Shown here piece after piece: positions 4,214-53,539 of a DNA stretch of 64,000 nt. A program made the translations under genes and the position numbers. The stretch is from positions 557,634-621,633 of the forward strand of contig CP060227.1 of assembly GCA_023898525.1 (NCBI GenBank), read 5' to 3'. Position 1 is the first letter of the stretch. Each line of letters opens with the position of its first letter. The notes beneath the pieces were generated by a model, which saw only the letters and a program-made list of their open reading frames with translations, searched no databases and was not told the DNA's origin. The stretch is from Candidatus Nomurabacteria bacterium. Lineage in GTDB: Bacteria; Patescibacteriota; Minisyncoccia; Phycocordibacterales; UBA918.

Positions 4214-6439
4214 TTAGAGTATCTTCATTAGCTCAAAAGCATCTCTTATGTCTTTTTTGTAGTCTTCAATACCGAGTTGGGCAGTAGGATATTGACTTGT
4301 ACCGGAGTGATCGTGGTGCGCTTGATTAGTTAAGATTGCCTCAATATTTGTTCTTCGACTTGTCATTACATAGGAACCGCCTGGCTGTTCTAGTTTTGTG
4401 AGCATGTCACCTACAGTGTTAATCTCTTTGGTAATCTCAAGTGGATATTTAGTCTTGAGAATGTGTTCTATTACTTTACGTATGCTCGCATGAGCATTTT
4501 TTACGAAAGCTAAATCCTGTGAGGAATTAGCATTCTTCATATCTGCAATCCAACAATTGTAGTCACTCATAAACTCAGCATCGTCATGAGGACTACATGC
4601 TATAAAATCAGTTCCACTCGTTGTATCCATAGACAATCTTAGGAAAGTGGCGGTTGCATCACTAGAATTTTCAGCGTGTAGAAGCTGATAAAAACCCTTT
4701 TCATGAGTGAGGAGGACTAGTTGCTTACCGGTATCCTTTAAGATTCTCTTTATTTCAGTAAGAATAATTCTCTTTCGATCAGAGTCGAAGCTAGAAACAG
4801 GATCATCCATGACAACGACCTTGATTGCTGAATCGTTCTTTACAGTAGCAAGGAAGAACGCGAGAGCAAGTACCCATTTATCACTGTCGCTCAAAGCGTT
4901 CTTAATGGTCATTTCACCGTCGTCTCCATCATTAGATATCTCGCTTCCTGACATACTTAACACAAGTAAGTCTTGCCTTTGATTTCCCTTAAAATTAAAT
5001 TTTGTGACCGTGAAATCACAATTACAAGCACTAAGCACGTCATTGATATCCTGTAACATGGATGCTGACAAGCCATTTGCGTAGACTAAATACTCCTCCC
5101 AGAGTTTAGTCTTTTCAGCACTTAACGTTACGTTTTCCTTCTTTGCTTTTTGATAGCTTTCACATCTGTCTTTCCAAGAACTAAATCTTTCTTTGTTTGC
5201 TTCCAGTAATTTTAACGACGTCTCCAACTCCGCTTTTTTCTCAGTTGGATTGGTGAAATTAAGCAGTTCTTTATCAATTGTTGCTATATGCGCTACAGCT
5301 TTCGAGGAAATATCTGTAAAAGGTGTGGTATCAAAATCAGTTGCCAAATCATCCTTCTTATCAGCAACCGCCTTCTCACAAGAACCATATGGACCGTCAA
5401 CATCAGTAAAATCTATAGCTAAATCATAGCCTGCCTGCTTAAGGTCAGTTTTGATCCTACTAATCTCTGCCGTAAAGCTATCCTGTGGAAATAATGCTTC
5501 AGCATCTTTTATTGCTTGCTGTAAAGTTCTGTACTTATCGTTATAGATAAGATCGATAGTCTTCAAGAACTCTTTTACCGAAGGTTCAGTAATCTCTTGT
5601 GTACAAAATGGGCAGTATTCTTTCTCAGTTCGAGCACGTAACTTTGATCCTGTCTGTAAGAAGGAACTGTAGGACTGTTTACTTTCTTTCTGATTTACAT
5701 GACTATCGTAATGCTTAGTGACTAGCTCGCTATTTACTGAAAGTTTCTCTGAAATATTTGTACTATCAAAATCCCTGTATCGTTCAAGCAGACTTTTTAT
5801 ACTGCCGAGTTTACTCGATATCAACTCAGAATTTTTAATCTTATCGAGAGAGTTCTTTTCTTCCTCGATTTTGCGATCAATGTCAGCGACTTCTGTAAGT
5901 CCAAGAAAATCGTCAAATGATAGACCACCTAATAGGTTTTTGTTTCTGTTGTACTCTGAACTAACCGATGTCTGAGTTCGTGTATTTTCAGCAATCTGCT
6001 CAGTGAGTTTTGTAATATTCGCGTTATACTCAGCACCTTTAGCACCGAGCATAAAAGCTTCAATATTCTTTTGTTGTTCCTGTCCGATTTGCTGATTCTG
6101 TGTGTATACACTTTCTCTTACAAAGTGATTGTCAAAGACGATGATGTCCTTATATTCTGCACTCCACTTTGCCTCATCAGTAGTGTATCTGTATTCACCT
6201 GTTGGGGTGGTAACTTCAGGAATAATTTTAACTGTCTGTTTCTGAGTTCCAATCGTTTTCCTTCCAATAATATAATCTGTTCTGTTTTCCTTTAGTGCGC
6301 GAAAGATTGCAGTCAGAGTACTCTTCCCGTGAGTGTTTTTACCGTAGATAAAAGTATTCTTTTTAAAGAACTGTGCATCCCCATCAGTTTTTGCTGATTT
6401 GAAACGTCCTACGTTAGTAATCTCAATTTTCTTTATCAT
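4214..6439 (-). CDS. rloC: RloC/PrrC-like restriction-linked anticodon nuclease. It has an ABC/SMC-type ATPase head, a coiled coil with a CxxC zinc hook, and a C-terminal nuclease-like region.
   Basis: Walker A is GKNTHGKST at the N-terminus. The Walker B/D-loop is VVVMDDPVSSFD. A long Lys/Glu-rich coiled coil carries a central CPFC, a Rad50-like hook as in RloC. A His-rich C-terminus resembles the PrrC ACNase region. The gene lies directly downstream of hsdS in the same operon, the classic prr/rlo arrangement. Confidence 0.6.
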   Translation of the reverse strand: MIKKIEITNVGRFKSAKTDGDAQFFKKNTFIYGKNTHGKSTLTAIFRALKENRTDYIIGRKTIGTQKQTVKIIPEVTTPTGEYRYTTDEAKWSAEYKDIIVFDNHFVRESVYTQNQQIGQEQQKNIEAFMLGAKGAEYNANITKLTEQIAENTRTQTSVSSEYNRNKNLLGGLSFDDFLGLTEVADIDRKIEEEKNSLDKIKNSELISSKLGSIKSLLERYRDFDSTNISEKLSVNSELVTKHYDSHVNQKESKQSYSSFLQTGSKLRARTEKEYCPFCTQEITEPSVKEFLKTIDLIYNDKYRTLQQAIKDAEALFPQDSFTAEISRIKTDLKQAGYDLAIDFTDVDGPYGSCEKAVADKKDDLATDFDTTPFTDISSKAVAHIATIDKELLNFTNPTEKKAELETSLKLLEANKERFSSWKDRCESYQKAKKENVTLSAEKTKLWEEYLVYANGLSASMLQDINDVLSACNCDFTVTKFNFKGNQRQDLLVLSMSGSEISNDGDDGEMTIKNALSDSDKWVLALAFFLATVKNDSAIKVVVMDDPVSSFDSDRKRIILTEIKRILKDTGKQLVLLTHEKGFYQLLHAENSSDATATFLRLSMDTTSGTDFIACSPHDDAEFMSDYNCWIADMKNANSSQDLAFVKNAHASIRKVIEHILKTKYPLEITKEINTVGDMLTKLEQPGGSYVMTSRRTNIEAILTNQAHHDHSGTSQYPTAQLGIEDYKKDIRDAFELMKIL

Positions 6440-6440
6440 G

Positions 6441-8054
6441 TTAAATAACCGCCTTCAGTGTGCTTACCATCTCCATCAACTCTTCAACCTTTTTTACGAT
6501 GCGTTTTTGCTCAGCAAGGGGTGGGAGTGGCACTATACAAGATGACCATCTTGTAAGATTCACAAGAGGTGTTGCTCCACCAGAAGCTTTGCTCCAAACT
6601 AATTTCTGAAAGTATTCAGTCTGAAAGACAAAAGACAGATAGCGACCGTCAGTGTGAAATGGCGTGATTTTATTTATCTGCTGATTGAAAGTATAGGTTC
6701 CGTCAACGTATGCCGATTTCCCAATTGTGCCACCTATGCAAACCATTAGGACGTCGCCGGGGTGAAGATACTTTGACTCTGAAGCACCTTGAGTAGTAAC
6801 TAATTTTGAGTATGAATTAATCGTTCTGTTCTGAATGTCACCGGGACCAATAAATGGAATTTCTCCTCCATAATTTCCATTCACGCCAGTACGTGGAGTT
6901 TTGCCAGTATCCAGTTTACCAATCTCAATAAGACGTACCCAGCGCCACGATTCAGGTATTTCAAACGGCGTTTCGCCCTCTGCAACATCAAGAACTTTTG
7001 ACTTCTTACCTTTAACTTTATTATTTAGTTCTAATTGAATTTCTGTATACAAATCCTCAGCTGTGCCTTCACTTTTATCTTGAGAGACGAGTTTGCCAGA
7101 AACGGCGAGAGTAAGAATGGCGTTTTCTAGCTCCTTGATATCTTGTGGAGTTTTGATTAGTTCAGTAAGTTGTTCAAAGGCAACTTTCGAATCAGCAGAT
7201 CCGAGTGCTTGCATAGCACTTCGTGTAAGACGAACACGGATCAAATCACGTTCATTTTTTTGTGACTCTAATTCATCGAGCTGCTTCATTACCACTTCAA
7301 TTTTCTCAACGATACGTTCTTGTTCTTTGGGTGGGACAAGGACAAAGACTTCATTCGCAAATGCACTACCAGATATCTCTTTAAATGTGGTACCAGTAGC
7401 CCTTAGGTTTATATCATCAGCTCTAAGTGTTAAAAACCAATATAGAAATTTAGAGTTTATGCCCGAGTGTGGTACCAAAGATTTAAAACCTTGATTTGTT
7501 GTGAGAGGATTTTCAGCAATTCCCACATAACCAATTGGAGCGCGACTTGAAAAAATGACAGAGCCTTTAGGCATCAAGGTTGTTGATGATTTTTTATATG
7601 CCTCTTCAGTGATGTTCTTTTTACCCGACTTAATAAACACTCCACTCTGCTGGCGCATATCAGCTGGGGTAAGCCAAGGAATAGAATTTGGAGTATCAGG
7701 ATCAACGAAATAAGTTGATTTTGTAGTTGATGGCGTACCTCCTCCCACAACTTCGCCTATCTCTACCAATCGTACCCACTTCCAAGACTGTGGTACTTCA
7801 AAGGGTACCTCTTCTTGTGAAATAGGTAATATTTCTCTGGTCTTTTTTCTTCGACTTGAAGCTAATAACCCATCCTTTGTCTTGAGAATTTCATTGTAAA
7901 GATCCTGTGCTGTGCCTTCCTGTTCATCTTGAGCTAGTAGTTGACCAGACATAGCCAAAGTCAGTACCGCTTTTCGTAGACGATTTATTCCATCTGGTAC
8001 TTCTATGAAGTCATTGATATTCTCAGCAACAATTTTTACATCACTTGGTGTCAT
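6441..8054 (-). CDS. hsdS: Type I restriction-modification specificity subunit HsdS with two target-recognition domains.
   Basis: The protein has a duplicated TRD architecture with conserved central and C-terminal coiled-coil repeats (EQERIVEKIEVVMKQLDELE and LPPLAEQKRIVKKVEELMEMV). It overlaps hsdM by 14 nt. Confidence 0.9.
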   Translation of the reverse strand: MTPSDVKIVAENINDFIEVPDGINRLRKAVLTLAMSGQLLAQDEQEGTAQDLYNEILKTKDGLLASSRRKKTREILPISQEEVPFEVPQSWKWVRLVEIGEVVGGGTPSTTKSTYFVDPDTPNSIPWLTPADMRQQSGVFIKSGKKNITEEAYKKSSTTLMPKGSVIFSSRAPIGYVGIAENPLTTNQGFKSLVPHSGINSKFLYWFLTLRADDINLRATGTTFKEISGSAFANEVFVLVPPKEQERIVEKIEVVMKQLDELESQKNERDLIRVRLTRSAMQALGSADSKVAFEQLTELIKTPQDIKELENAILTLAVSGKLVSQDKSEGTAEDLYTEIQLELNNKVKGKKSKVLDVAEGETPFEIPESWRWVRLIEIGKLDTGKTPRTGVNGNYGGEIPFIGPGDIQNRTINSYSKLVTTQGASESKYLHPGDVLMVCIGGTIGKSAYVDGTYTFNQQINKITPFHTDGRYLSFVFQTEYFQKLVWSKASGGATPLVNLTRWSSCIVPLPPLAEQKRIVKKVEELMEMVSTLKAVI

Positions 8055-9486
8055 GGTGAGAAAGTGCTTCGGTAAGCACAGCGCGAATTTTTTCGAGAGT
8101 AACTTCTACTTCTTTTTTCTTAGTTCGGTAGACTTCAAGTAATTCTTCTGGAGACTCAAGCACATCAACTGGGGTACGTGGATTCTTGATATCGAGGTTG
8201 TAGTTTCGCTTTACAATCTCATCAATAGATACTTTCCATGCACGATCATTCTCTTCTCGGTTATTCCACCATTCTTTCACTGGCTCAAATTCTTCAACCC
8301 TGATTGGATTGGTCATTGAATATGCTTTCTGACCTTCTGGAAGTGAGTGTTCGTAATACCAGACCTCTTTTGTAGGTTCGCCTTTAGTAAAGAACAGGAG
8401 GTTTGTGGCAATACTTGTGTATGGAGCAAACACGCTCTTTGGAAGACGGACAATGGTGTGAAGGTTGCACTCCTCAAGCAGTTGCTTCTTTAGAGCAGTT
8501 TTCATCCCTTCACCAAAGAGAGTACCGTCTGGCAAAACGATACCTGAGCGACCATGTTTCTTGAGCAAGCGGAGAATAAGTACAAGGAAGAGGTCAGCGG
8601 TTTCTCTGGTTTGGAATTCCTTCGGAAAATTGGCTTCGATACCTGGCTCTTCAGTACCACCAAAAGGGGGATTTGTAACAACACAATCTACTTTGTCAGC
8701 ATCGGTGTAGTCTCGAATCGGTTTCTCGAGGGTATTGCCACGACGCATAGTAACCGGCTCTTCAATACCATGGAGCATCATATTGGTCAGAAGGAGCATA
8801 TACGGTAACGGTTTCTTCTCCACGCCGTGAATACTTTGCTGAATCTTCTGCTCGTCCTTTACCGACTTCACTTGCTTACGCATGTGTTCAAGCGAATGAA
8901 CCAAGAAGCCACCGGTACCCGATGCAGGGTCTAATACTGACTCGCCAACCTTTGGATCAACCATTTCAACAATGAACTGCGTCACAGCTCGTGGCGTATA
9001 CATCTCTCCAAAGTTTCCGGCACTTTGAAGACTCTTCAGAAGACGCTCGTATACATCATTGAAAACGTGACGATCTTTTGAGGCATTGAAGTCAATCTCG
9101 TTAATCTTGTTTATCACTTGCTTTAACAGTGTCCCTTTACGCATGAAGTTATAGACATCTTGAAACGCCATACGGGTAAGGTCGGTACGTTGGTTGCCAT
9201 TCTTTGGTAAATCGCGAAGCCCAGGAAGCAGATCATTGTTTACAAACTCAATGAGCTTGTCTCCCGTCATTCCATCCATAGGAGCAGCCCACGTGCGCCA
9301 TTGATACTTCACAGGAAGAGTCGGGACATATTTCTCCTTACGAATTTCCAGTGCTCGATCCTCATCATCGAGGATCTTTAGAAAGATCAGCCACACCATC
9401 TGCGATAGCCGAGTCGCATCACCGTCAACACCAATATCTTGGCGCATGATGTCCTGGATGGCTTTAATTGTTGCGGGAGTAAGCAT
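8041..9486 (-). CDS. hsdM: Type I R-M N6-adenine DNA methyltransferase HsdM.
   Basis: It has the HsdM N-terminal domain. The SAM-binding motif is VLDPASGTGGFL. The catalytic motif IV is VVTNPPFGG (NPPF). Confidence 0.95.
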   Translation of the reverse strand: MLTPATIKAIQDIMRQDIGVDGDATRLSQMVWLIFLKILDDEDRALEIRKEKYVPTLPVKYQWRTWAAPMDGMTGDKLIEFVNNDLLPGLRDLPKNGNQRTDLTRMAFQDVYNFMRKGTLLKQVINKINEIDFNASKDRHVFNDVYERLLKSLQSAGNFGEMYTPRAVTQFIVEMVDPKVGESVLDPASGTGGFLVHSLEHMRKQVKSVKDEQKIQQSIHGVEKKPLPYMLLLTNMMLHGIEEPVTMRRGNTLEKPIRDYTDADKVDCVVTNPPFGGTEEPGIEANFPKEFQTRETADLFLVLILRLLKKHGRSGIVLPDGTLFGEGMKTALKKQLLEECNLHTIVRLPKSVFAPYTSIATNLLFFTKGEPTKEVWYYEHSLPEGQKAYSMTNPIRVEEFEPVKEWWNNREENDRAWKVSIDEIVKRNYNLDIKNPRTPVDVLESPEELLEVYRTKKKEVEVTLEKIRAVLTEALSHHDTK

Positions 9487-9489
9487 AGA

Positions 9490-11856
9490 TTATTGTGCGT
9501 ACATTACATCGAGTAATTCATCGACCGTTTGGAAGTATCCTTCTTTTCCACCAAAGAGCGATACGAGTTCGTAATCAGTACCCATTGAACGAAGTGGTTC
9601 TAGAGTAAGAATTCGAACGCTCTCAATGTCTTTAAGAGTAACGTCAGCATATTTCTCAAGAAGTGCTTCAAGCACTTCTCGTGCCTTTCCGCTGTACTTA
9701 TCAAGATAGTTTGAGCGGCGTACCGCTTCAATACGCTCATTCTTCTTCATCATCTTCTTATCATAGGCAACGTGCATGATGAGATCAAACAAATCAAAAT
9801 CTGCTCCAACTTGCTTCTGAAGCTCCTCGAGCGGAATACCACTCGCATCAATTTTATCAATAATAGCTTGGCGACGTTCTGCTGATTGCCAGGCACTGAA
9901 GAAACTTTCGAGTGTTGGGTAGTGCGTGAGAATATTCTTTTTGGTGAAATCAGTAAGCGATTGTGTGAGGAGTTTGCCGTCGGGACCAAGGTATTGCACT
10001 TGTTCCTTTACCACTGCGTACGGCACGCCGCTGAGTTTGTAGACTGGTGGACGTTCTGCAACCTCTTCTGAACCTTGTGAAATAACAGCGTCTACAAGTT
10101 CGTCTTCTTCAAACTTTTCCTCGACTGACATGTCTTCTGGATCTTCCGCTTCTATAGTTTCAGCAATATCTTCATCTTCTCCAACTTCAAATACACGCTC
10201 AGCGACACCGTCAAAGGCAGGGTCAGCAAAAAGTTTTGTGGCACCTTGAAAGTCCATAATCGTGAACCACATCTTTCCTTTGTCTTCACGAACTCGGGTA
10301 CCTCGACCAATAATCTGCTTAAACTCAGTCATGCTCTCAATCGGCTTGTCGAGCACAATGAGTTTGCAGGTTTGAGCATCCACACCAGTTGAGAGAAGTT
10401 GCGAGGTAGTAACAATTGTTGGGAATCGCTCTTCTGGGTCAATGAAGCGGTCAAGTTGATTCTTTCCTTCTTCATCGTCACCTGTAATACGCATGACGTA
10501 ACGAATATCCTCTCGGGCTCGTTCACCAGCTACATTTACTAACGCACTACGCATACGTTCAGCGTGAGCAGTTGTACGGCAAAAAACAATTGTCTTTGCA
10601 TATGGGTCTTCTACTGCTTCAAGGTACTCAAATATCTTTTCTGCAATTACTTTCTCTCGCTGTGGGAAGATAACGGATTTATTAATATCGCGAAGTTCAT
10701 AGAGTCGATCTTCTACTGGATTCCCATTATCATCTACGGTACCTGGCACAGGGCGCCAGCCAGTCACATCGTTATCGAGTAATACCCGCATAACCTTGTA
10801 TGGTGCCAAGAATCCATCATCAATACCTTGCTTGAGTGAGTAGGTATAGATAGGGTCACCAAAATAGTGTGAGGTGCTGGTGTCAGCGGTTTCTTTTGGT
10901 GTAGCGGTAAGACCAAGGTGTGTTGCTCCAGTAAAGTGCTCAAGAATTTCTCGCCACTCGCTATTTTCTGAAGCGCTACCTCGGTGACACTCATCAATAA
11001 CAATAAGATCGAAGAAATCTGAAGGTAATCGTTTGAAGAGTTTCTCTTCCTCTTCCTTGCCACTCATTGCTTGGTAGAGACTAAGGAATATTTCATGAGA
11101 CATCAGTGACCCTAGATCATTGAAGTTCTGTCGTGAAATCTTAGTTAGTGCATCACCAAAGTGCTTGAGGTCATTAATGCGTGCTTGGTCAACAAGAATA
11201 TTTCTATCAGCTAAAAACAATACTCGCTTTGCGCTACCAGACTTCCAAAGACGCCAAATAATCTGTCCAGCAGTGTACGTCTTTCCAGTACCAGTAGCCA
11301 TAACGAGTAAAATGCGTTTCTGACCACGCGCTACAGCCTCAACTGCTCGATCAATAGCAATACGTTGGAAATATCGTGGCGATTTGTTTGGGTCGTCAGA
11401 ATATAGTGGGGTTTCAATTACATTCTTAACAGCTTCAGCTTCACCCTTCCATGTGAGGTATCGAGCATACAATTCATCTGGTGATGGAAATTGGTCAGGA
11501 GTGAGAGTAGTCTCAGTCTCTGGTGAGAGACCAGTTCGGTCATGAAAAAGGAAACCCTCACCATTTGCCGAGAAAACGAATGGGACATCGAGCGCTGATG
11601 CGTACCCAAGAGCCTGCTGCATTCCTGCACCAAGATCTTTGGCAGCCGACTTTGCCTCCACAAGAGCAATTGGAAGATTTGGTCGGTACTCAAGAAGAAA
11701 GTCTACTTTCTTCTTTTCTCCTCGTTTAGCAACACGTCCGCTAACGTGAATGCGGCCCATCGTGTATGGGTACTCCTCTCGTATCTGGTGATCATTCCAT
11801 CCAGCACCTACTATGGTAGGGCGAATGAGACGATTTCTTGTTTCTTCTTCATTCAT
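9490..11856 (-). CDS. hsdR: Type I restriction enzyme R subunit HsdR.
   Basis: The N-terminus is a PD-(D/E)xK nuclease (VDFLL...VEAK). The SF2 helicase region carries Walker A (LLVMATGTGKTYTA), a DEAH box (IVIDECHRG) and motif VI (GRGTR). An HsdR C-terminal helical domain follows. At 788 aa it is shorter than many HsdR proteins, but all core domains are present. Confidence 0.9.
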   Translation of the reverse strand: MNEEETRNRLIRPTIVGAGWNDHQIREEYPYTMGRIHVSGRVAKRGEKKKVDFLLEYRPNLPIALVEAKSAAKDLGAGMQQALGYASALDVPFVFSANGEGFLFHDRTGLSPETETTLTPDQFPSPDELYARYLTWKGEAEAVKNVIETPLYSDDPNKSPRYFQRIAIDRAVEAVARGQKRILLVMATGTGKTYTAGQIIWRLWKSGSAKRVLFLADRNILVDQARINDLKHFGDALTKISRQNFNDLGSLMSHEIFLSLYQAMSGKEEEEKLFKRLPSDFFDLIVIDECHRGSASENSEWREILEHFTGATHLGLTATPKETADTSTSHYFGDPIYTYSLKQGIDDGFLAPYKVMRVLLDNDVTGWRPVPGTVDDNGNPVEDRLYELRDINKSVIFPQREKVIAEKIFEYLEAVEDPYAKTIVFCRTTAHAERMRSALVNVAGERAREDIRYVMRITGDDEEGKNQLDRFIDPEERFPTIVTTSQLLSTGVDAQTCKLIVLDKPIESMTEFKQIIGRGTRVREDKGKMWFTIMDFQGATKLFADPAFDGVAERVFEVGEDEDIAETIEAEDPEDMSVEEKFEEDELVDAVISQGSEEVAERPPVYKLSGVPYAVVKEQVQYLGPDGKLLTQSLTDFTKKNILTHYPTLESFFSAWQSAERRQAIIDKIDASGIPLEELQKQVGADFDLFDLIMHVAYDKKMMKKNERIEAVRRSNYLDKYSGKAREVLEALLEKYADVTLKDIESVRILTLEPLRSMGTDYELVSLFGGKEGYFQTVDELLDVMYAQ

Positions 11857-11860
11857 AAAA

Positions 11861-12064
11861 TTAGTTGCTCTTGGTTAAAAAACTGATGATGTCCTCTTTA
11901 CGGTAGCGACGGTCTTTTCTTGTACCAAAGCGTAGTGCTTTTAATACACCGTTATTGTCCCACTTACGAAGCGTGTTGGGGTGGCAATTGAGAACATCAC
12001 AGGCCTGTTGCAAGGTCAGGATGTCTGGCAGCTCCAATAGCTTTTTTTCGTGGTTCGTTGGCAT
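11861..12064 (-). CDS. Small helix-turn-helix DNA-binding protein of the excisionase/AlpA/MerR-like HTH_17 type, immediately upstream of hsdR.
   Basis: LTLQQACDVLNCHPNTLRKWDNNGVLKALRFGTRKDRRYRKEDI matches the Xis/AlpA-like HTH signature. It could act as an excisionase or as a controller of the R-M operon. Confidence 0.65.
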   Translation of the reverse strand: MPTNHEKKLLELPDILTLQQACDVLNCHPNTLRKWDNNGVLKALRFGTRKDRRYRKEDIISFLTKSN

Positions 12065-12090
12065 AATTGCTAACTTAACACAAGTTTACA

Positions 12091-12510
12091 CTAATTTTCG
12101 AGGATGACCATTTTATTTTTAAGCTTGATTTCAGACTTGAAGCATCCCATCAACTCCCGCTTCTCTTCATTTGAACCCTCCTTTAGCACGTACTTGGCGT
12201 AGTCTCTGAGGTTTATATCTTGATGATCGCTAGCCCTCCCCTTGATGCCGAGCACCCCTTTATGGAATTTGTTGAATCGCTTCAACTCCTCCTCGAATTT
12301 AACCTGTACTCCTGTCTCATTGAGATTAATCTTGTCCATGAGCTTGCTGAACTGCTCAGTAAGCTCTTCTTCCCGCATGTATGGATTCTTGCAGTGGCGG
12401 TCTTTAGAGCGACCACACCCGTAATAGATGTACTTAGCAGTAGTGCCATCTTTTAATGCTTTATACTTTTCTTCCGCACTGATACCAGAACCACAGAGTC
12501 CACAAGTCAT
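12091..12510 (-). pseudogene. C-terminal remnant of a large serine recombinase (zinc beta-ribbon plus coiled-coil tail). The catalytic resolvase and recombinase domains are missing.
   Basis: CGLCGSGI...YIYYGCG is the recombinase zinc-ribbon signature (CxxCG...YYxC). The ORF is only 139 aa. Its reading frame stays open 10 codons upstream of the ATG (...KGKEFTFTKL-M) and then hits a stop. There is no room for the roughly 300-aa N-terminal catalytic part. Confidence 0.55.
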
Positions 12511-12622
12511 AAGCTTTGTAAAAGTAAATTCCTTGCCTTTTTATACAAACTTAGATACTGTTGCAAACGGAAATACGACACAGTGAGCAATATATACAAA
12601 CTACAACTTTAGGAGGTGTCCT

Positions 12623-13291
12623 ATGCACAGATGTGAAGGAAAATGGATTGAAGCATATCAAGATAAAAAAGCTTTTTGGATGCATAGTGGTGACAATACA
12701 AAACCACATGCCCTACTTACCAGCAGAAAACATTCAAACGGTTTCTTTAACAGTCGGTTAATAATAGCTGATGAACCACTACTGAATGAAGCGGCAGCTG
12801 ATTTGCTGGAAATGTATCTAAAACATTATGGAGGAGCGATAAATGATATCGATGGCGTAGTTGGCCCACAAACCGGTGCTACAAAATTAGCAAAATTGAT
12901 TTGTCAGCATGTAGTAAATGAGACTGGAAGCGACCGCTTTTATGCTTCACCGGCAAAATACACCGACGAAGATGGGGTTAAATCAATGGTTTTTACAGAC
13001 GAAGACTTGCTCCTATTAGCAGGAAACACAATCTTGCTCTGTGAGGACGTAGTAACCACCGGTGGAAGTATCGGGCTAACAGCAGAAGCTGCAGAAAAGG
13101 CTAACGCAACAGTAATGCCTTATATAGTTACCTTAGTGAATCGCTCTGGACAAAGTGAAATTGATAACCGAAAAATAATTTCCCTGATCAGCAAACACAT
13201 GCCCACCTGGGCAGAAGAAGAATGTCCTCTCTGCAAAACCGGCTCTCAAGCCTTACCGGCTAAAGATAACTGGAATGAGTTGAATAAGTAA
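12623..13291 (+). CDS. Phosphoribosyltransferase, orotate-PRTase-like.
   Basis: The PRPP-binding motif is ILLCEDVVTTGGS. The N-terminal region (SRKHSNGFFNSRL) resembles the OPRTase flexible loop. A strong SD sequence (aggagg) lies 7 nt upstream. Confidence 0.65.
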   Translation: MHRCEGKWIEAYQDKKAFWMHSGDNTKPHALLTSRKHSNGFFNSRLIIADEPLLNEAAADLLEMYLKHYGGAINDIDGVVGPQTGATKLAKLICQHVVNETGSDRFYASPAKYTDEDGVKSMVFTDEDLLLLAGNTILLCEDVVTTGGSIGLTAEAAEKANATVMPYIVTLVNRSGQSEIDNRKIISLISKHMPTWAEEECPLCKTGSQALPAKDNWNELNK

Positions 13292-13610
13292 AGTAATTTT
13301 TAACCTCTATGCTTTTAAAGCCCTCAATAAGTTGGGGGCTTCATCTTTATCTATTTGACATCAGACCAACCGATATTACTTTTGTTCTGTTTGATTCGTT
13401 ATTTTTACTCAACCAAGGCGTCCCTTACTTGTATATTTTCTGGGACAAAGTTTTAAAGCGGTACACACGCCCAAAACCGTTGCTGTAGATAGGTAAACAC
13501 TACTACCTATTTTTTTGGGAAATTGATTGACTCCAACCCGGATCTAAAAAAACTCTTATTTACTGTTAATGTTATACTGTCACGCACACTAGAAACTGTA
13601 GTTACTCAAC

Positions 13611-14177
13611 ATGAATAAACAAAAAAAGCGCTGTTGGAATATTTCTGAAGACGACACATTGATGGCTGATTATCACGATAACGAATGGGGTAAGCCGGTA
13701 CATGATGATCGACATTTATTTGAAATACTAATATTAGACGGCGCCCAAGCTGGTCTGTCGTGGCGGACAATTTTGAGTAAACGTGATAATTACCGCCAAG
13801 CCTTTGATAATTTTGATGTTCAAAAAGTAGCTCAATACAATGAAAAAAAGATTGAAGAACTAATGAATAACGAAGGGATAGTCCGCAACCGCCTAAAGAT
13901 TCAGTCAGCCATCAGAAACGCCAAGGTATTCATGGAAATACAAAAAGAGTTTGGGTCATTTGATAAATATATCTGGAGTTTTTCAGGCGGTAAAACCATC
14001 AAAAATAATTGGACGAAGCAAGAGGACGTACCCGCCACTTCCCCGCTCTCAGATGAGATTAGTAAGGATTTGAAAAAACGCGGTATGAATTTTGTCGGTT
14101 CCACTATTATTTATGCAGCGATTCAAAGCATTGGTATTGTCGACGACCATTTGGTCGGCTGTCATAAAAATTGGTAA
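13611..14177 (+). CDS. tag: DNA-3-methyladenine glycosylase I.
   Basis: RCWNISEDDTLMADYHDNEWGKPVHDDRHLFEILILDGAQAGLSWRTIL closely matches the Tag family signature, including the zinc-binding Cys/His. The length is typical (188 aa). Confidence 0.9.
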   Translation: MNKQKKRCWNISEDDTLMADYHDNEWGKPVHDDRHLFEILILDGAQAGLSWRTILSKRDNYRQAFDNFDVQKVAQYNEKKIEELMNNEGIVRNRLKIQSAIRNAKVFMEIQKEFGSFDKYIWSFSGGKTIKNNWTKQEDVPATSPLSDEISKDLKKRGMNFVGSTIIYAAIQSIGIVDDHLVGCHKNW

Positions 14178-14241
14178 ATATAAGAAAAGAAAAAACCAGC
14201 TGCACATGGCAACTGGCTCAATATTTTTGTTACTGCTGTTT

Positions 14242-14834
14242 TTACCCCTCAGAATAAAAGAGGTGGCTCCCCGCTCTGCAGACAAAGAATTCACGCTTTG
14301 CCCACTCTGGCGGAGTCTCCACAATGTCTGGGTTGTAGTACAAAACTGCACCCGGACAAGGATTTGCTATGCGATCAGTCAACACATCTACCACAACTTT
14401 TTCAATTTCAACATATCTGTTGAAATATTTTGGTTGCAATAACTCGCTGAACTGCACAGTACACACTCCATCGTACTGACATTTTATATCACCTGGGCGA
14501 TTTTCATTTCTTTGATAGATGACATTTATCATTCTATCTGGAAATTTTTCTGAGAACATTCTGGTCAATACAGTATACGTTACCGCAGGCCAACTGTTAG
14601 GATCCCATTTATCAACCCAGACTTCGCTGTAGACTAGCCGAGTAAGAGAATCTACAACAAACTCCCATTCTTTTTCAGAATGGATATTGTATGGATATTG
14701 TATGGATAGAATGAATAAGAAGTCACCTGAAGTGGGATTGTTAGACCGCCACTTTCATATTTGATACTAGACTTACCAGTAACCGCCCAAAACGTCAAAA
14801 TAACTACTATAAGAATTACAGAAATAATCCTCAT
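14242..14834 (-). pseudogene. Secreted protein gene (about 187 aa if repaired) disrupted by a frameshift caused by an 11-bp tandem duplication.
   Basis: ORF 14652..14834 carries a signal peptide (MRIISVILIVVILTFWAVTG) and ends ...FYPYNIHTISIL*. ORF 14242..14568 continues upstream in another frame as ...SIQYPYNIHSEKEWEFVVDSLTRLVYSEVWVDKWDPNSW... Removing one copy of atggatattgt gives one continuous ORF, ...SYSFYPYNIHSEKEWEF... Confidence 0.5.
14679..14707. repeat. Tandem repeat (atggatattgt)x2 plus a partial copy (atggata), located inside a coding sequence.
   Basis: Seen directly in the sequence. The 11-nt unit shifts the reading frame. Confidence 0.85.
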
Positions 14835-14880
14835 TTCATCCCCTTAAATAACAAAAATATATGACTCATAATAACACGAA

Positions 14881-15570
14881 TCACATTTTTGTCAATGTCT
14901 GCTGACCAACCTGTTCTGAATCGTTGTTATGATCTACAGAAAATTTTCTTAAAATTCTTGGTGCAAACGGGATTTTCTGTCTTCGCCTCATCCAGTAATA
15001 ACCAATCGTAGCAACAATGATAGCGCCTGCTCCATTAAAGATAAAATCCCACATAGTATCGGGCAAGCCATTTTCTTGCATTGTGTAACCAAACAGAGTA
15101 TCCCCTGCATATTCGTAAATTTCCCAAACCACAGATAAAGCTAAAGAAAAACAAACGGCAAACACTGAGATGAAACCGGGGCTCATAGTGAGTTTATCTG
15201 ATCGCCTGGCGTTCAAAATATAAACCATGACAAACCCTACCACCCCGAGCAATATGCCAGATTGAAAATGAAGCACCGTATCCCACCAATAGAATTTTTC
15301 ATAAAAATCATTTAGACTACCCAAAAACAAAGAGAGAAAAATAAAAACCACGATGGCAAAATCGAGTTCAAACGGCATGTAAAAACGATACTGCATCCGC
15401 AAGAAGGAAGGGGTTATCATAAGCAGCAATATAAATACCGCACTAACCGCTGACTCCCACTCACCATAGAAAAGAAAAACGAACACCGACAAAGCCACAA
15501 AGGCTCGCATTCCGAAATAAATATTTAAAGCCAGTTTATTTCGTTCACCATTATTATAGTCACGACTCAT
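14881..15570 (-). CDS. Polytopic membrane protein, hypothetical.
   Basis: It has six or more hydrophobic segments. I recognise no motif. Confidence 0.5.
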   Translation of the reverse strand: MSRDYNNGERNKLALNIYFGMRAFVALSVFVFLFYGEWESAVSAVFILLLMITPSFLRMQYRFYMPFELDFAIVVFIFLSLFLGSLNDFYEKFYWWDTVLHFQSGILLGVVGFVMVYILNARRSDKLTMSPGFISVFAVCFSLALSVVWEIYEYAGDTLFGYTMQENGLPDTMWDFIFNGAGAIIVATIGYYWMRRRQKIPFAPRILRKFSVDHNNDSEQVGQQTLTKM

Positions 15571-15644
15571 AAACTTTATTATACAAAGATTACACCTTTT
15601 TACTACACTATACGTACTTCTGAAAAATATGCTTTAATCAATGA

Positions 15645-16256
15645 GTGCATGATAAACATTCAGACCTTATAGGCTTAGGCATTGTAGTCATTTTGTTTGG
15701 TCTAGCTTTATATGTAAGCCAATCTTTTGGTGCTGAACTTGGAGCGTACTTGAACTTTGGCTTCAGTGGCATGTTCATCTATGTATTATTGGGAATAATC
15801 GCCACTGTAGCTGCCCCAATTACAACTGTCCCTTTGATACCGATTGCGACCAGCCTTTGGGGGGCTTTTATCACTGGGCTTTTAAGTGTAGTAGCATGGA
15901 CAATCGGAGCAATAATCGCCTTTATGTTAGCTCGTCGCTTTGGCAGACCAATATTAAGCAAGTACATTGACCTATCAAAAATCTCTAGGTACGAAAAGAT
16001 TTTTGGTGATGAACAAATATTTTGGCAAATTGTCATCTTGCGCATGATGATACCGGTGGATATTTTAAGTTATGCGATTGGATTATTTTCGACCGTGAAA
16101 TTAAGTACTTATACCGCCGCCACAATTATTGGTATCTCCCCTTTTGCTTTCATTCTAGCCTATATGCCCAATATGGACTTAACTATACAAATCTATGTCG
16201 GTATCTTTATCGCCATAGTAGCCTATCTTGGTTATAGAAAATTTAACCGCAAGTAG
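15645..16256 (+). CDS. DedA/TVP38/TMEM64-family membrane protein.
   Basis: VPLIPIATSLWG and the ARRFGR motif match the SNARE-associated (DedA) family. Confidence 0.7.
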   Translation: MHDKHSDLIGLGIVVILFGLALYVSQSFGAELGAYLNFGFSGMFIYVLLGIIATVAAPITTVPLIPIATSLWGAFITGLLSVVAWTIGAIIAFMLARRFGRPILSKYIDLSKISRYEKIFGDEQIFWQIVILRMMIPVDILSYAIGLFSTVKLSTYTAATIIGISPFAFILAYMPNMDLTIQIYVGIFIAIVAYLGYRKFNRK

Positions 16257-16274
16257 TCTATTTTTATTTGAGTC

Positions 16275-16973
16275 CTAGTCAGTATCTATATCTGTAAACA
16301 ACCATGTACTCTTCATTTTTCTCAAGATGCAAACTGGTGTCAAACCTTGGTTACAATCGGTATCGTTTTCCAACCTCTTTACAATAACCTGCTTTTCTTT
16401 ACCGGCTGCGTAGACGATAGCAAAATCAATTTGTTCAATCATGAAAGTTGGGGTGACGGTGATACGCTTAGTGTATTCATTTACCTCTTTTGGTACTTCA
16501 TATGACACCGCCCACTTACCCAAAGCAAAGCTATTAGCATAATCTCCCGGCATGATACCGGCCGTGTGGCCATCTAGACCAATCCCAACCGTAGCAATTA
16601 TAATTCCGGAAGGATTCTCTTGTCGCCATTCCCTCAACTCAGTCTCCCACTTTTCTGCAACCTCTTGGCAACCATTGTTATCATAAACTTTGGTGGAAAT
16701 AGTCTTTACCTTTTTACCTGACGCCCGTTTATAAAATTCTGTCTTTTCTATTTGAGCGAAGTTGTTTATATTTTCGTCAGAAGAACAGCGTTCATCCAGA
16801 ACTGTCAGTGTCAGGTTTTCACTTAAACTTTCTGCAGCTATTTGATCCAGTAATGTCAAAGCCGAGCCACCAGAAAGCATGAGTAGAACAGACTGATCTT
16901 TATATTTAATTAACAATTGTTGCAACGCTTTGCCGGCTTCTTCGGCTGGATTTTTTGATCGGATAACCTCCAT
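16275..16973 (-). CDS. pgl: 6-phosphogluconolactonase (DevB/Pgl family).
   Basis: The motifs LMLSGGS and GIGLDGHTAG fit the GlcN6P-deaminase/6PGL fold. The gene lies directly downstream of zwf-gnd. Confidence 0.7.
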   Translation of the reverse strand: MEVIRSKNPAEEAGKALQQLLIKYKDQSVLLMLSGGSALTLLDQIAAESLSENLTLTVLDERCSSDENINNFAQIEKTEFYKRASGKKVKTISTKVYDNNGCQEVAEKWETELREWRQENPSGIIIATVGIGLDGHTAGIMPGDYANSFALGKWAVSYEVPKEVNEYTKRITVTPTFMIEQIDFAIVYAAGKEKQVIVKRLENDTDCNQGLTPVCILRKMKSTWLFTDIDTD

Positions 16974-16974
16974 A

Positions 16975-17874
16975 TTAATCCTTGTTTACCACCTTATGTC
17001 CACCAAATTGATTACGCATAGAAGCTACCAACTTACCTAAATAAGACTCTTTTTCGCGAGTAACTTTTCTTTGCTCTAGGGCCGCCTTGAGGACTTTTGT
17101 CTCTCCTATAGTCAGGATATGTTCCATTTCAAATTCTGTCTCACCGGTTGGTACCACCCCAGCCACCACATCTATCTGTCCTTCTTCATAAGCCTGTCTA
17201 AGCCAGGTCACTAACTTACTCGTTATAATACTTTCGTGTTCATAGGGTTTAAACACCTCTTTTAGATCAATACCAAACTCTTCTTCATGTTCATGTAACA
17301 CAGTCACACCTTCTGCAATCGCCCCCATCATGCCATACTCAATGCCGTTATGCACCATCTTTACAAAATGTCCCGCTCCTTCATTACCTACTCGCGCATA
17401 CCCATTTGGTGCTGCCAGTGTCTCAAAAATATGTTCATGTTCAGCGAATATTTCCGGCTTTCCACCAACCATAATCGAAGCTCCATACCGAGCTCCCTCC
17501 ATACCGCCAGACATACCACAATCTAAGAAATTCAACTCCTTCTCCACTAAAGCTTTATGTCGTCTGAGTGAATCTTGATAAAAACTATTCCCACCATCAA
17601 TCACTGTGTCACCCTTAGCCAAAAGTGGTATTAGTTCATCAAGGACACTGTCGACCAGTTTGCTCGGCACCATTAGCCACACCACCCTGTCTTCGGGCAA
17701 AGCGGCCGTCATCTCAGAATAATTCTCAACCACTTCCACTCCAGCTGCTTTGGCGGCCTTTTGCGCTTCTTCGTTTGGATCAAACCCTACTACTCTATAA
17801 CCTTTTTCTACCAACAGAGCTGTCATATTTAAACCCATGCGACCAAGTCCGATAAAACCAATTTCTTTTTTCAT
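16975..17874 (-). CDS. gnd: 6-phosphogluconate dehydrogenase (decarboxylating), short YqeC-type form.
   Basis: The N-terminal Rossmann motif is IGFIGLGRMGLNM. It also has GGNS...GTSGG-like motifs (DCGMSGG). The length is about 300 aa. Confidence 0.85.
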   Translation of the reverse strand: MKKEIGFIGLGRMGLNMTALLVEKGYRVVGFDPNEEAQKAAKAAGVEVVENYSEMTAALPEDRVVWLMVPSKLVDSVLDELIPLLAKGDTVIDGGNSFYQDSLRRHKALVEKELNFLDCGMSGGMEGARYGASIMVGGKPEIFAEHEHIFETLAAPNGYARVGNEGAGHFVKMVHNGIEYGMMGAIAEGVTVLHEHEEEFGIDLKEVFKPYEHESIITSKLVTWLRQAYEEGQIDVVAGVVPTGETEFEMEHILTIGETKVLKAALEQRKVTREKESYLGKLVASMRNQFGGHKVVNKD

Positions 17875-17902
17875 AAAAAATAAATATATTAGCTAACAAA
17901 TA

Positions 17903-19384
17903 CTATTTGGCATCAGTTGGGCCACTGCTTCCTTTCGGATATTTGAGTAGCGGCAGATTTTTAAATGACTCAATAATCGGAGTCACAAAACGCCAAGCTG
18001 CCTCCACTTCATCGCTACTTACAAACCGAGTTTGGTTACCAGAAATACAGTCATACAAGACTCGCTCGTAAGCTTCGGGTGAATAGCTATCTGTAGTCTT
18101 CTCGTGCAACAGCACCAACTTTTGTTCTTTAAGAGAAAATTCGAAACCCGGCTCTTTCATCCACATTGAGAGACAGATGTGTTGTTCGAGAGCAAATTGT
18201 ATCTTGAGTACATTTTTGTGCTGATGCACTTCCTCCGTATACGCACAGTTACAATTATCAGCTGAGCGAAAAGTAATGACTGCCTCGTTAATAGTTTTGT
18301 CCAAAGCTTTTCCAGCCTCAAGCGAAAAATGTACTCCTGACCACTCAGAATCTTTAGCCACAAAAGAGATCTTAAAATATGTCTCAGTCTCCGAATCCTC
18401 TTCCACACCCAACGTTTCAGTGAACCCTTCATATTGCCCTCGCACTACCCGATCCGGGCCCTGACTCAAGAGTGAAGACAAGGCTTCGGCTCTGGCTTTC
18501 CTTACTGAAGCTGCATCATGCACGTCGACTTTAGACATGGTAAGCAAAGCCAACATTTGTAGCAAATGATTTTGCCCAACGTCTCGTAAAGTTCCTATGT
18601 TGTCATAAAATGATCCACGATTAGAAACATCCTTTTCTTCCAAAAGACGAATGTCAATTGATTCTATATTGTCTTTATTCCAAGAATCAGTCAAAATACT
18701 GTTAGCAAAACGTAAGGAGATGATATTTTCAATAGCATCTTTTTCCAAGTAGTGATCAATTCGGTACACCTGTTCATCAGTAAACAAATTGCAAAGTTTG
18801 TCTTCAAGAACCTGAGCTGTCTCCAGGTCTCGACCAAATGGTTTTTCAACCAAAAGTCGTGACCAAGAATCATGATTGTCACAAAGCGCCATGGCCTGAC
18901 TATCGTTTAATTGTTCAAAAATTATATTGTAATACTGTGGCGGCACCGCTAAATAAAACAACTTATTGGTGCATTGCTTTATTTCAGTATCATAATTTAG
19001 CAAAGCTGTTTTGATCTTGGTGTAGGCTTCGTCGTCGTCAAAGCTACCGTCGAGGTAGCGCAGGTGACTACAAAATTCAGACACAGCCTCACTGTCATGT
19101 TGATGTCCTTTTTTGTTGATACTTTCTTTTACAAAATCTCGATATTCTTGATCTGACAGAATTTTACGCGACAAGCCTATGATTACAAATTTATCTGGTA
19201 AAGCTCCTGTCACATATAAATCAAGTAAAGCTGGAAAAAGCTTAGTCTGAGCTAGATCGCCGGTTCCACCAAAAACTACTATAGCGGTCGGTAGGTTGTA
19301 CTTTTTGTTATCTATCATCATTCTCAATAATACACCCACCTCTTGAAGACTTACACCCTTCCATGTTAATATTTTAGTAATCAC
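17903..19384 (-). CDS. zwf: Glucose-6-phosphate 1-dehydrogenase.
   Basis: The NADP-binding motif is VVFGGTGDLA. The catalytic signature is RIDHYLEKD (compare RIDHYLGKE). The true start is probably an internal Met (MMIDNKK...). Confidence 0.9.
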   Translation of the reverse strand: MITKILTWKGVSLQEVGVLLRMMIDNKKYNLPTAIVVFGGTGDLAQTKLFPALLDLYVTGALPDKFVIIGLSRKILSDQEYRDFVKESINKKGHQHDSEAVSEFCSHLRYLDGSFDDDEAYTKIKTALLNYDTEIKQCTNKLFYLAVPPQYYNIIFEQLNDSQAMALCDNHDSWSRLLVEKPFGRDLETAQVLEDKLCNLFTDEQVYRIDHYLEKDAIENIISLRFANSILTDSWNKDNIESIDIRLLEEKDVSNRGSFYDNIGTLRDVGQNHLLQMLALLTMSKVDVHDAASVRKARAEALSSLLSQGPDRVVRGQYEGFTETLGVEEDSETETYFKISFVAKDSEWSGVHFSLEAGKALDKTINEAVITFRSADNCNCAYTEEVHQHKNVLKIQFALEQHICLSMWMKEPGFEFSLKEQKLVLLHEKTTDSYSPEAYERVLYDCISGNQTRFVSSDEVEAAWRFVTPIIESFKNLPLLKYPKGSSGPTDAK

Positions 19385-19402
19385 GCAAGTAATTAAATCA
19401 CT

Positions 19403-19723
19403 ATGTTAGAAAAAGAAAAAATTGAAGCCTTACGAAAAAAACTCAGCACATCAGTCGATGATGTTATATTGATTGAAACCTTCAAGCTTTTAGGCGACAA
19501 AAATCGTTTTCGGATTATCAAAATGCTAACTGAAGAAAAGGAATTATGTGTTAGCGAACTGGCTGCCATTCTTGATACCTCAATGTCAGCTGTATCGCAA
19601 CATCTTCGCATCTTAGAAATGTCGGGCTTAGTCGAAGGTAAGCGCTGTGGCCAGATGATGTGCTACACACCTTTAATAGATCATCCAAAAGTAAAGGCTA
19701 TTATCAAACTAATGGATTCTTAA
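19403..19723 (+). CDS. ArsR/SmtB-family metalloregulatory transcriptional repressor.
   Basis: It has a winged HTH (ELCVSELAAILDTSMSAVSQHLRILEMSGLV) and a size typical of the family. Confidence 0.85.
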   Translation: MLEKEKIEALRKKLSTSVDDVILIETFKLLGDKNRFRIIKMLTEEKELCVSELAAILDTSMSAVSQHLRILEMSGLVEGKRCGQMMCYTPLIDHPKVKAIIKLMDS

Positions 19724-19734
19724 TCTAGAGCAAA

Positions 19735-20373
19735 ATGCCCATTAATTTAAACATAAAAAATATTCTTGGTGCGCTTTGGATTTTAATAATACTTGCCGCC
19801 ATTTACTACTATCTAAGCCATGGCATATCGATTGAAACCATTCAAAGCAACCTAGCCGGTCTAGGTTGGTGGTCTGGACTAGTATTTATACTCGCATATA
19901 CCATTAGACCTTTAGTATTTTTTCCAGCCTCAATTATGACCCCTTTGTCGGCGGTTCTATTTGGACCCGTCATGGGTTGGGTATATACATATATAGGTGA
20001 AAATTTATCTGCTACTGTCGCCTTCTTTACCGCCCGCTACTTTGGTCGTAACTTTGTCAAAGAGAACCAAAACGCCTTTATCAAAAAATACGATGAGAAA
20101 CTGCGCTGCTGTGGCTTTGAAACAGTTTTAACCTTGCGCCTGATTCCTCTTTTCCCTTTTGATTTTGTTAACTATGCTTCTGGACTCTCCGCCATCCGTT
20201 ACAGTAGCTATATCGGCGCAACCTTGCTCGGTGTAATTCCTGGTTTAACCGCCTACATCTTTCTCGGTGGATCATTAATGAATCCTTATTTGATCATTCC
20301 AACCGTTATTCTCTTTGGTTTGATTGCTTGGTTTGTCCACCGTCATCATAAAAAGACAAAGGATCAGGCATAA
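19735..20373 (+). CDS. TVP38/TMEM64 (DedA) family membrane protein.
   Basis: The motifs FFTARYFGR and RLIPLFPFDFVNYASGL are typical of this family. Confidence 0.8.
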   Translation: MPINLNIKNILGALWILIILAAIYYYLSHGISIETIQSNLAGLGWWSGLVFILAYTIRPLVFFPASIMTPLSAVLFGPVMGWVYTYIGENLSATVAFFTARYFGRNFVKENQNAFIKKYDEKLRCCGFETVLTLRLIPLFPFDFVNYASGLSAIRYSSYIGATLLGVIPGLTAYIFLGGSLMNPYLIIPTVILFGLIAWFVHRHHKKTKDQA

Positions 20374-20377
20374 AAAA

Positions 20378-20432
20378 ATAAAAGGCCGCCCAGCCCGTCA
20401 TAAATGACGGGCTGGGCGGCCTTTTATTTTTT
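20378..20432. terminator. Bidirectional terminator formed by a perfect 22-bp-arm palindrome.
   Basis: aaaaggccgcccagcccgtcat-aaa-tgacgggctgggcggcctttt, flanked by A/T runs. Confidence 0.8.
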
Positions 20433-33432: not shown

Positions 33433-33505
33433 GCGCCTTTAGCTCAGTTGGTAGAGCAGCTCCCTTTTAAGGAGACGGTCCAAGGTTCGAGCCCTTGAAG
33501 GCGCA
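33433..33505 (+). tRNA. tRNA-Lys (anticodon UUU).
   Basis: The cloverleaf was folded by hand. The acceptor stem is gcgcctt/aaggcgc. The D arm is gctc-agttggta-gagc. The anticodon arm is gctcc-CTTTTAA-ggaga (27:43 is a G.A mismatch; the loop equals the E. coli tRNA-Lys loop). The T arm is caagg-TTCGAGC-ccttg. The discriminator is A, and no CCA is encoded. Confidence 0.85.
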
Positions 33506-33558
33506 CAAATATTAAAACCCTCCGAACGGAGGGTTTTAATATTTGTGCGCCTTCAAGG
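33494..33558. repeat. A perfect inverted repeat with 31-bp arms whose left arm starts inside the tRNA-Lys 3' end (T-stem and acceptor strand).
   Basis: cttgaaggcgcacaaatattaaaaccctccg-aac-cggagggttttaatatttgtgcgccttcaag. Confidence 0.85.
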
Positions 33559-48253: not shown

Positions 48254-48627
48254 ATTTAAATCATATTCTACTCTTTATTATTAGGGTTGTGGAAGTGTGC
48301 ATATCTCAAAAATATGTTGTATTTATAATCGTTTTTTATCAACAATACCTATTGGTGATAGTTGGTATCGTGTTTGAGAGTTTGGGATAAGGTGTGAATA
48401 TTAAGCTGGTGACTAAAAAGGCTAAAAATAATGTTGATAAGATGGTAGGCAAACCAACACTTTTTCCTAGTATAACACTGTCTTACTAACAGGTTTTCCG
48501 AGTCATAACCCAAAACATTTTTAAAGTTATTAACAAGGTAATTAACATGTGGTTGGTTAAGTTTTTATAAACAAATAACCCCAAGCACTAGTGGGGTTAT
48601 TTGTTTATATTAATTACTTTACTTCAT

Positions 48628-50034: not shown

Positions 50035-50267
50035 TGCATTATACCCTCATTCTCAAAGCTGTAAAACCCATACGTACTTTTGAAGTAAAACCAATAACTT
50101 TTTTTAAAAATAAAAATGCAACTGTGTATAACCTGTGTATAAAATGTAATTAAAAATATACCACCCTACCCTCTTTTTTGTGACCTATACAACAAATCTA
50201 ACTAAGCTATTGAATTATTTATTTAATCATGTATAGTGTGACGGTAAATTACATTAGCTGAAATCAT
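50035..50267. promoter_or_regulatory. Candidate oriC / DnaA-box region between divergent dnaA and rpmH.
   Basis: The region is AT-rich. Two direct TGTGTATAA boxes (matching TGTGNAWAA) lie at 50123-50131 and 50134-50142, one helical turn apart. Degenerate boxes (TTATCAACA, TGTTGATAA) also occur in the dnaA-dnaN spacer at 48254-48627. Confidence 0.4.
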
Positions 50268-53530: not shown

Positions 53531-53539
53531 ACACTATAC

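Follow-up and report, generated by a model that had tools for sequence, protein, structure and literature searches.

A probable recent loss-of-function frameshift in a chromosomal SleB-like hydrolase gene of Candidatus Nomurabacteria

Introduction

An 11-bp sequence repeated in tandem interrupts a minus-strand coding region of the window, this being the whole 64-kb stretch of DNA that was analysed, and two short open reading frames (ORFs) in different frames are found there. The question raised by this locus is whether these represent the remains of a single gene that has recently been lost, a gene that can be turned on and off, or two genes in their own right, and whether the duplication is genuine at all. 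A preliminary description of this DNA spoke of a secreted-protein gene inactivated by an 11-bp tandem duplication, and offered pseudogenisation or an on/off switch as the explanation. The inactivation is upheld by the present analysis, the repaired ORF encoding a full-length Hydrolase_2/SleB-like protein with homologues that are single-copy. Fresh pseudogenisation also fits the evidence, while the switch finds no support in it, there being only two full copies of the unit and no copy-number difference in three assemblies. The locus probably represents a recent loss-of-function frameshift in a chromosomal SleB-like hydrolase gene of Candidatus Nomurabacteria.

The tandem duplication

The repeat and its full units are located as follows:

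14680..14708, strand not assigned: perfect 11-bp tandem duplication, reading TATCCAT-ACAA-TATCCAT-ACAA-TATCCAT on the minus strand
14695-14705 and 14684-14694: the full units CCATACAATAT of the 11-bp repeat

TRF analysis identified a single array at 14680-14708 with a period of 11, 2.6 copies, 100% matches and a score of 58, which is the top-scoring tandem repeat of the 64-kb window. This agrees with the 2.6 occurrences described beforehand, the position given then (14679-14707) being 1 nt off. Among lags of 4 to 60, the longest identity run in the window is one of 18 at lag 11, a length reached in none of 100 first-order Markov simulations (mean 10.9, maximum 15). No further copies of the 11-bp unit were found elsewhere in the 64-kb window.

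In the single-copy sequence, TATCCATACAATATCCAT, a 7-bp motif already occurs twice in direct orientation at an 11-bp period (TATCCAT-ACAA-TATCCAT), an arrangement typical of the substrates of replication slippage. If slipped strands mispaired at these 7-bp copies, exactly the duplication observed would result; during replication the nascent strand may have slipped back by one 11-bp period, recopying ACAATATCCAT. A DNA hairpin abutting the repeat (CCATTC..GAATGG) was also considered as a promoter of slippage and was rejected, being no stronger than those of shuffled sequences (z = -0.75). The locus shares with frameshift pseudogenes made by slippage a perfect head-to-tail duplication, a 7-bp direct repeat at the 11-bp period and a single lesion. 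There is no difference in kind from such pseudogenes, it only being of mention that the public annotation is unflagged and calls the 105-aa remnant alone. The duplication is an ordinary type of mutation, found here in a rare clade of SleB-like hydrolases.

Fragments of the divided gene

The duplication divides one minus-strand gene into a 60-aa fragment and a C-terminal remainder. The parts concerned are:

14652..14834, minus strand: 5′ fragment ORF of 60 aa, ending at TAG 14652-14654
14242..14679, minus strand: remainder of the ancestral ORF (residues 49-193 and stop) with the SleB-like catalytic domain, in the -1 frame relative to the ATG
14623..14625, minus strand: GAA codon of Glu67 (repaired numbering), the putative catalytic glutamate, invariant in the alignment
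14559..14568, minus strand: first canonical starts in the downstream frame, TTG 14566-14568 (Leu86) and ATG 14559-14561 (Met89)

Both ORFs named in the preliminary description exist, one of 60 aa at 14652..14834(-) and one of 108 aa with a TTG start at 14242..14568(-). Codons 1-48 of the former (14691-14834) correspond to the ancestral N-terminus, with Arg2, a hydrophobic helix at residues 3-17 and the conserved F-Y-P-Y-x-I motif, while codons 49-60 are out of frame and read TISILKKNGSLL. The extra 11 bp shift the reading frame by +11 (i.e. +2), and translation from ATG 14834 stops after 48 native and 12 frameshifted codons. The frame of the catalytic domain stays open from 14754 downwards on the minus strand. 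The peptide YPYNIH is indeed encoded twice, once by copies 1-2 in frame 0 and a second time by copies 2-3 in the -1 frame. Deletion of one unit does restore a single ORF, as had been proposed; its computed size is 193 aa in place of the earlier estimate of about 187 aa, a figure that matches the length of the homologues (187 aa) by coincidence. In this repaired reading no second lesion was found in the hydrolase gene.

In the downstream frame the first ATG, GTG or TTG is encountered at 14568 (residue 86), and the public annotation begins its 105-aa CDS at ATG 14559 (residue 89). Both TTG 14566-14568 and ATG 14559-14561 lie 3′ of the Glu67 codon, and neither is preceded by a Shine-Dalgarno-like sequence. 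The downstream ORF is also devoid of an export signal, with the export signal and the catalytic domain now residing on separate fragments. Because Glu67 is encoded after the break but ahead of any start codon available further downstream, and because of this missing export signal, neither fragment would be an exported, catalytically competent hydrolase. Ribosomes starting at the ATG would terminate after 60 codons, and the catalytic domain would be left in the other frame with no start codon before Glu67 and no signal for export. Neither product would then be able to act as an exported wall hydrolase, which points to a loss of function.

The repaired protein and its family

The ancestral gene would have encoded a protein of approximately 193 aa comprising a Sec-type signal or anchor helix, an F-Y-P-Y-x-I-x-S-x-x-E-W segment and a SleB-like domain. 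Residues 80-190 of the repaired 193-aa protein match the Pfam family PF07486 (Hydrolase_2) with 42.6 bits (cut-off 27, E-value 9.8e-11), and PF07486 is also precomputed in the database for its homologues P0001 and P0002. With the SleB equivalog TIGR02869 the repaired protein scores 21.9 bits, the C-terminal domain alone being aligned; as this is far under the cut-off of 236.5, it is considered a member of the family and not a SleB orthologue. A profile built from 22 family members matches the SleB catalytic domains 4FET and 4F55 with E-values of about 2e-21.

In the AF2 model of the repaired protein (pLDDT 86.2), residues 3-17 form an N-terminal helix, and a confident domain, the first long helix of which (residues 50-68) bears Glu67, extends from approximately residue 41. 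The top three matches of a Foldseek search of the PDB were 4fet_A, 4fet_B and 4f55, with a probability of 1.00 and target-normalised TM-scores of 0.65-0.77, the next match beyond the SleB structures having an E-value above 1. Glu67 is the sole invariant acidic residue of the 22-sequence family alignment. When aligned with SleB (4FET/4F55), it falls on the E of the sequence Y-G-E-S-R-G-E, and the catalytic Glu of SleB is reported to be essential (PMC12331253, PMC11148199). This conserved glutamate is retained by the repaired reading alone, as the translatable downstream ORF (from residue 86 or 89 on) lacks it.

The N-terminus possesses Arg2 and a 16-residue hydrophobic stretch followed by A-V-T-G-K, residues 1-19 having a mean hydropathy of 2.4. 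From its sequence this N-terminal helix resembles either a Sec signal peptide or a signal anchor. The product of the intact gene is therefore put forward as a putative exported, SleB-like peptidoglycan-cleaving enzyme, both export and activity being predicted.

With the SleB/CwlJ-type hydrolases (PF07486; 4FET, 4F55) it has in common the Pfam match, the invariant glutamate and the predicted fold of the catalytic domain. However, there are differences. SleB has an N-terminal peptidoglycan-binding domain, which the repaired protein lacks, and is a spore enzyme, whereas the host here is a non-sporulating Patescibacterium. The usual E-A-R-G-E motif of the SleB type is replaced by S-E-V-W-V-D in this small clade. 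In addition, the gene described here is frameshifted, and has only about four close relatives in public data.

Relatives and the single-copy state

A word-indexed search of 5.8 billion clusters returned two homologues, P0001 and P0002, both of 187 aa with identities of 57% and 54% respectively, and both originating from the ENA assembly ERZ27295583. An exhaustive HMMER search of 1.84 billion representatives gave 180 matches at E ≤ 0.001 and three at E ≤ 1e-30, these being P0001, the window's own 105-aa remnant (P0003) and P0004. Each of the intact relatives is one protein of 183-187 aa with one F-(Y/H)-P-Y-G-I-x-S-x-x-E-W segment. P0004 has a single FYPYGISSKEEW, while P0001 and P0002 are colinear with the single-copy form. 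The single-copy, intact gene anticipated in orthologues is also apparent at the DNA level, where both homologues show an 11-nt alignment gap exactly at the extra unit. Neither the TATCCAT microhomology nor the repeat is present in the homologous loci L001 and L002, and so the slippage-prone sequence is specific to the lineage of the window.

BLAST comparison shows L001 and L002 (89.8% identity) to be one locus in two strains of one metagenome, and the initial possibility of their being paralogues in different contexts was discarded. Comparison of the two (L001:2232-3189, L002:1-958) reveals a recombination mosaic in the hydrolase gene: its ends and the flanks are near-identical with a dS of about 0.06, while the central nt 84-444 are highly diverged, with a dS of about 0.9 and a dN/dS of about 0.2. 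This central dN/dS led to diversifying selection on these homologues being rejected in favour of such a mosaic. The dN/dS of about 0.2 between P0001 and P0002 reflects purifying selection, which indicates that the family is functional where it is intact.

Other collections gave no further relatives. A search of the GTDB species-representative contigs with the repaired hydrolase and the neighbouring zwf gave no match, nor did a search of JGI metagenomes with the family alignment and with the exact DNA pattern containing 1 to 3 units. No relatives were found on viral contigs, and there is no sign of a phage-borne clade.

Expression signals

The ancestral gene would also have had its own promoter, ribosome-binding site and terminator, candidates for which can be recognised on either side of the coding region:

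14868..14895, minus strand: promoter-like site, TTGACA and a TG-extended TATTAT with a 16-nt spacer, 11/12 matches
14839..14843, minus strand: Shine-Dalgarno-like GGGGA, 4 nt before ATG 14834-14832, as read from the sequence
14193..14219, minus strand: intrinsic-terminator-like hairpin followed by a T-run, with the core CCAGTTGCCATGTGCAGCTGG at 14196-14216

The DUF2238 gene upstream runs with its 3′ end into the promoter-like site, and the arrangement of this site (TTGACA...TTCGTGTTA..TAT) also occurs upstream of the L001 homologue. The sequence GGGGGA is kept in both L001 and L002. The terminator-like hairpin is unique within the 64-kb window, and 19 of the 21 positions of its core are kept downstream of the homologues. 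Promoter and terminator are shared with L001 (at about 2205-2240 and 2868-2888) and L002 although the proteins are just 57% identical. The neighbouring genes differ, being DUF2238 and Tag here as opposed to glutamate dehydrogenase, glyoxalase and MscS at L001/L002. It would seem that the hydrolase gene moves together with the signals for its expression. Promoter, ribosome-binding site and terminator are intact, and since the single lesion can be reversed precisely via 18 bp of tandem homology, the inactivation is not irreversible.

The duplication as a switch

This reversibility raises the alternative that the duplication is an on/off switch, in which a unit gained or precisely lost by slippage or short-homology recombination, often enough to be of biological use, would toggle the exported wall hydrolase. 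The repeat is perfect, with 18 bp of tandem homology, the precise removal of one unit puts the frame back, and the expression signals are intact. A change in unit number does toggle the frame, as in contingency loci, with the loss of one unit or the gain of two restoring it; however, the gain of one further unit leaves the gene still out of frame. Classical contingency loci have long tracts, whereas there are just two full copies here (2.6 copies in all) and no hypermutable tract of many units. Moreover, the unit is unique, no comparable repeat being present in another gene of the 64-kb window, and the homologues have neither the repeat nor the 7-bp microhomology. The same OFF state is present on all three public contigs and no intact allele is recorded; the identical truncated product on these contigs (two units in the Logan contig, which is read-based, 14 kb in length and crosses the site unbroken) gives a copy number for three contigs only. 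On this evidence a switch is quite unlikely.

Spontaneous reversible duplications in capsule genes of S. pneumoniae are a documented form of phase variation (Waite et al., 2001, 2003, as cited in PMC4243769). The pneumococcal cases (cap3A, cap8E and tts) resemble the present locus in being intragenic, perfect tandem duplications in which loss of one copy can restore the frame. In contrast to the capsule switch, one fixed duplication is found here in all available assemblies, with no revertant or mixed population observed.

There is also a slim chance that the duplicated allele is throttled as opposed to dead, with occasional unit loss or leaky -1 frameshifting allowing a Patescibacterium to keep a potentially harmful exported lytic transglycosylase at a very low or stochastic level. 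Should the repeat prove unstable, or be circumvented through frameshifting, the locus would offer a rare case of stochastic gene control in candidate-phyla bacteria; nothing here points in that direction.

Leaky -1 frameshifting

Low-level expression through adventitious -1 ribosomal frameshifting at CTG_AAA_AAG with a hairpin was considered in its own right, on account of two features:

14670..14676, minus strand: G_AAA_AAG, in frame with the 5′ fragment and, speculatively, an adventitious site of -1 slippage
14619..14665, minus strand: predicted RNA hairpin with a 13-bp main stem and 3 outer pairs, the main stem beginning 8 nt after AAG

The G_AAA_AAG sequence lies five sense codons before the stop of the 60-aa ORF. 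Its AAA and AAG are read as codons in the 0 frame, and ribosomes slipping by -1 at this point would enter the frame of the catalytic domain; the result would be a 197-aa product reading ...YPYNIHTISILKKEWEF..., with TISILKK in place of SEK. This would however place a 4-aa insertion within residues 41-50, a segment that is conserved and modelled with confidence (pLDDT 87). The spacing of the hairpin resembles that of dnaX-type signals and the window contains a gene for tRNA-Lys(UUU). Nevertheless, the hairpin has a modest z-score: the 80-nt segment has a minimum free energy of -22.6 kcal/mol (z = -2.0), and 10 of 200 shuffles fold equally well. The first 55 nt fold at -19.7 here, compared with -8.9 in L001 and -8.5 in L002. 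Neither L001 nor L002 has the duplication, an in-frame AAA_AAG or the hairpin, and the signal is thus not conserved. Transcriptional slippage on the A5 run was also looked at and rejected, such slippage needing a longer run.

Given a stimulator, A_AAG is the most shift-prone tetramer in E. coli, while tetramers without a strong stimulator are barely above background, at about 0.15% against 0.11% (PMC4066793). By the rules given in the same source, the site supplies the A-site tetramer A_AAG but departs from the canonical X_XXY_YYZ heptamer in that the P-site codon would have to re-pair as GAA (PMC4066793). The likeness to the -1 signals of dnaX and IS elements (A_AAA_AAG and a stem-loop) lies in the 0-frame AAA_AAG and the predicted hairpin 8 nt downstream; the differences are the G as first base, the lack of an upstream SD-like stimulator and the lack of conservation in relatives. 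Productive frameshifting is thus very unlikely, and the arrangement at the slip site is a mere by-product of the duplication.

Authenticity of the lesion

The exact truncated 105-aa product is present on three contigs, namely those of MCB9810701.1 (a MAG) and USN87286.1, and one from Logan (SRR12358675), which may share a sample or project. The contig of USN87286.1 is the longest of these at 1,087,875 bp. A literature search for SRR12358675 gave no match, and an activated-sludge hybrid-assembly study (PMC8518188, PRJNA648801) is no more than a plausible origin of that run. The product is named "cell wall hydrolase [Candidatus Nomurabacteria bacterium]" at NCBI (MCB9810701.1, USN87286.1), where the organism is placed in the Patescibacteria/Parcubacteria group. 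The exact intact 193-aa protein was absent from approximately 15 billion sequences. Likewise, no record matched the 108-aa TTG form, the 60-aa fragment or the DUF2238 neighbour exactly, only the 105-aa ATG form being recorded.

Small duplications can be introduced where consensus or polishing windows meet, and the source is an assembly from an uncultivated organism; the extra 11 bp could in principle be an artefact of sequencing, assembly or polishing, with the real genome being intact. However, the read-based Logan contig is 100% identical to positions 6273-20394 of the window over 14,122 bp with both units present, and the occurrence of the same allele there and in two NCBI records makes an artefact unlikely. 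The window is also 92% covered by ORFs, its other genes appear intact, including the neighbouring ones, and there is no other obviously split gene near the locus. Furthermore, the 7-bp direct repeat of the inferred single-copy sequence provides a natural biological route to this very duplication. Taken with these points, an artefact is highly improbable.

That the two ORFs are separate functional genes, for a small secreted peptide and a cytoplasmic protein of 105-108 aa, is scarcely credible even though NCBI annotates the 105-aa ORF as a CDS and it still matches Hydrolase_2, as this ORF (105/108 aa) lacks the first ~30 residues of the domain including the invariant Glu67, has neither a signal peptide nor an SD-like sequence, the homologues are all single proteins of 183-187 aa, and the final 12 residues of the 60-aa ORF are frameshift read-through.

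Significance of the frameshift

With the loss-of-function frameshift, as a recent allele that is fixed or in the majority, as the preferred reading, the main value of the finding lies in a correction to the annotation: the 105-aa "cell wall hydrolase" of the public records is the stranded C-terminus of a frameshifted, 193-aa, predicted exported enzyme. Its loss in this lineage would also be a small data point on reduced-genome bacteria shedding cell-wall enzymes.

Other features of the window

Upstream in the numbering of the window, positions 4214-12510 contain a type I restriction-modification system with hsdR (EcoAI family, 9490-11856), hsdM (8041-9486) and hsdS (6441-8054), beside which is found an AAA_13 protein (4214-6439). 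Flanking the system are two ORFs, one HTH_17 excisionase-like (11861-12064) and the other of 139 aa (12091-12510), the latter corresponding to the zinc-ribbon part alone of a large serine recombinase. This region (4214-12510) may be the remnant of an integrated element, with a second decayed gene near the hydrolase.

At 26326-29160 on the minus strand is a gene for a 944-aa protein with no NCBIfam match, which possesses an RTX calcium-binding repeat near its C-terminus and a sub-threshold match to M23 peptidase; this could be a further exported protein, active on the wall or located at the surface. The window has a single tRNA gene, for tRNA-Lys(UUU), at 33433-33506 on the plus strand, and this tRNA would decode the AAA_AAG of the putative slip site. 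A PilB/GspE-type ATPase is encoded at 39227-40960, and a cluster of conjugation or type IV secretion-like genes lies at 51598-60833 on the minus strand, among them a VirB4-like ATPase of the CD1110 family (55348-57141) and a weakly TrbL/VirB6-like protein of 667 aa (58830-60833).

On its two sides the dnaA gene (48628-50034, minus strand) has non-coding gaps of unusual length, 374 and 431 bp, and at 50122-50142 there is a perfect repeat with an 11-bp unit and 1.9 copies (CTGTGTATAAC). Positions 48254-50808 are probably the replication origin region. Finally, the DNA polymerase I encoded at 35843-38269 on the minus strand has only 808 aa and its NCBIfam alignment falls into two stretches, 5′-3′ exonuclease and polymerase, which suggests that its 3′-5′ exonuclease domain is reduced or missing.
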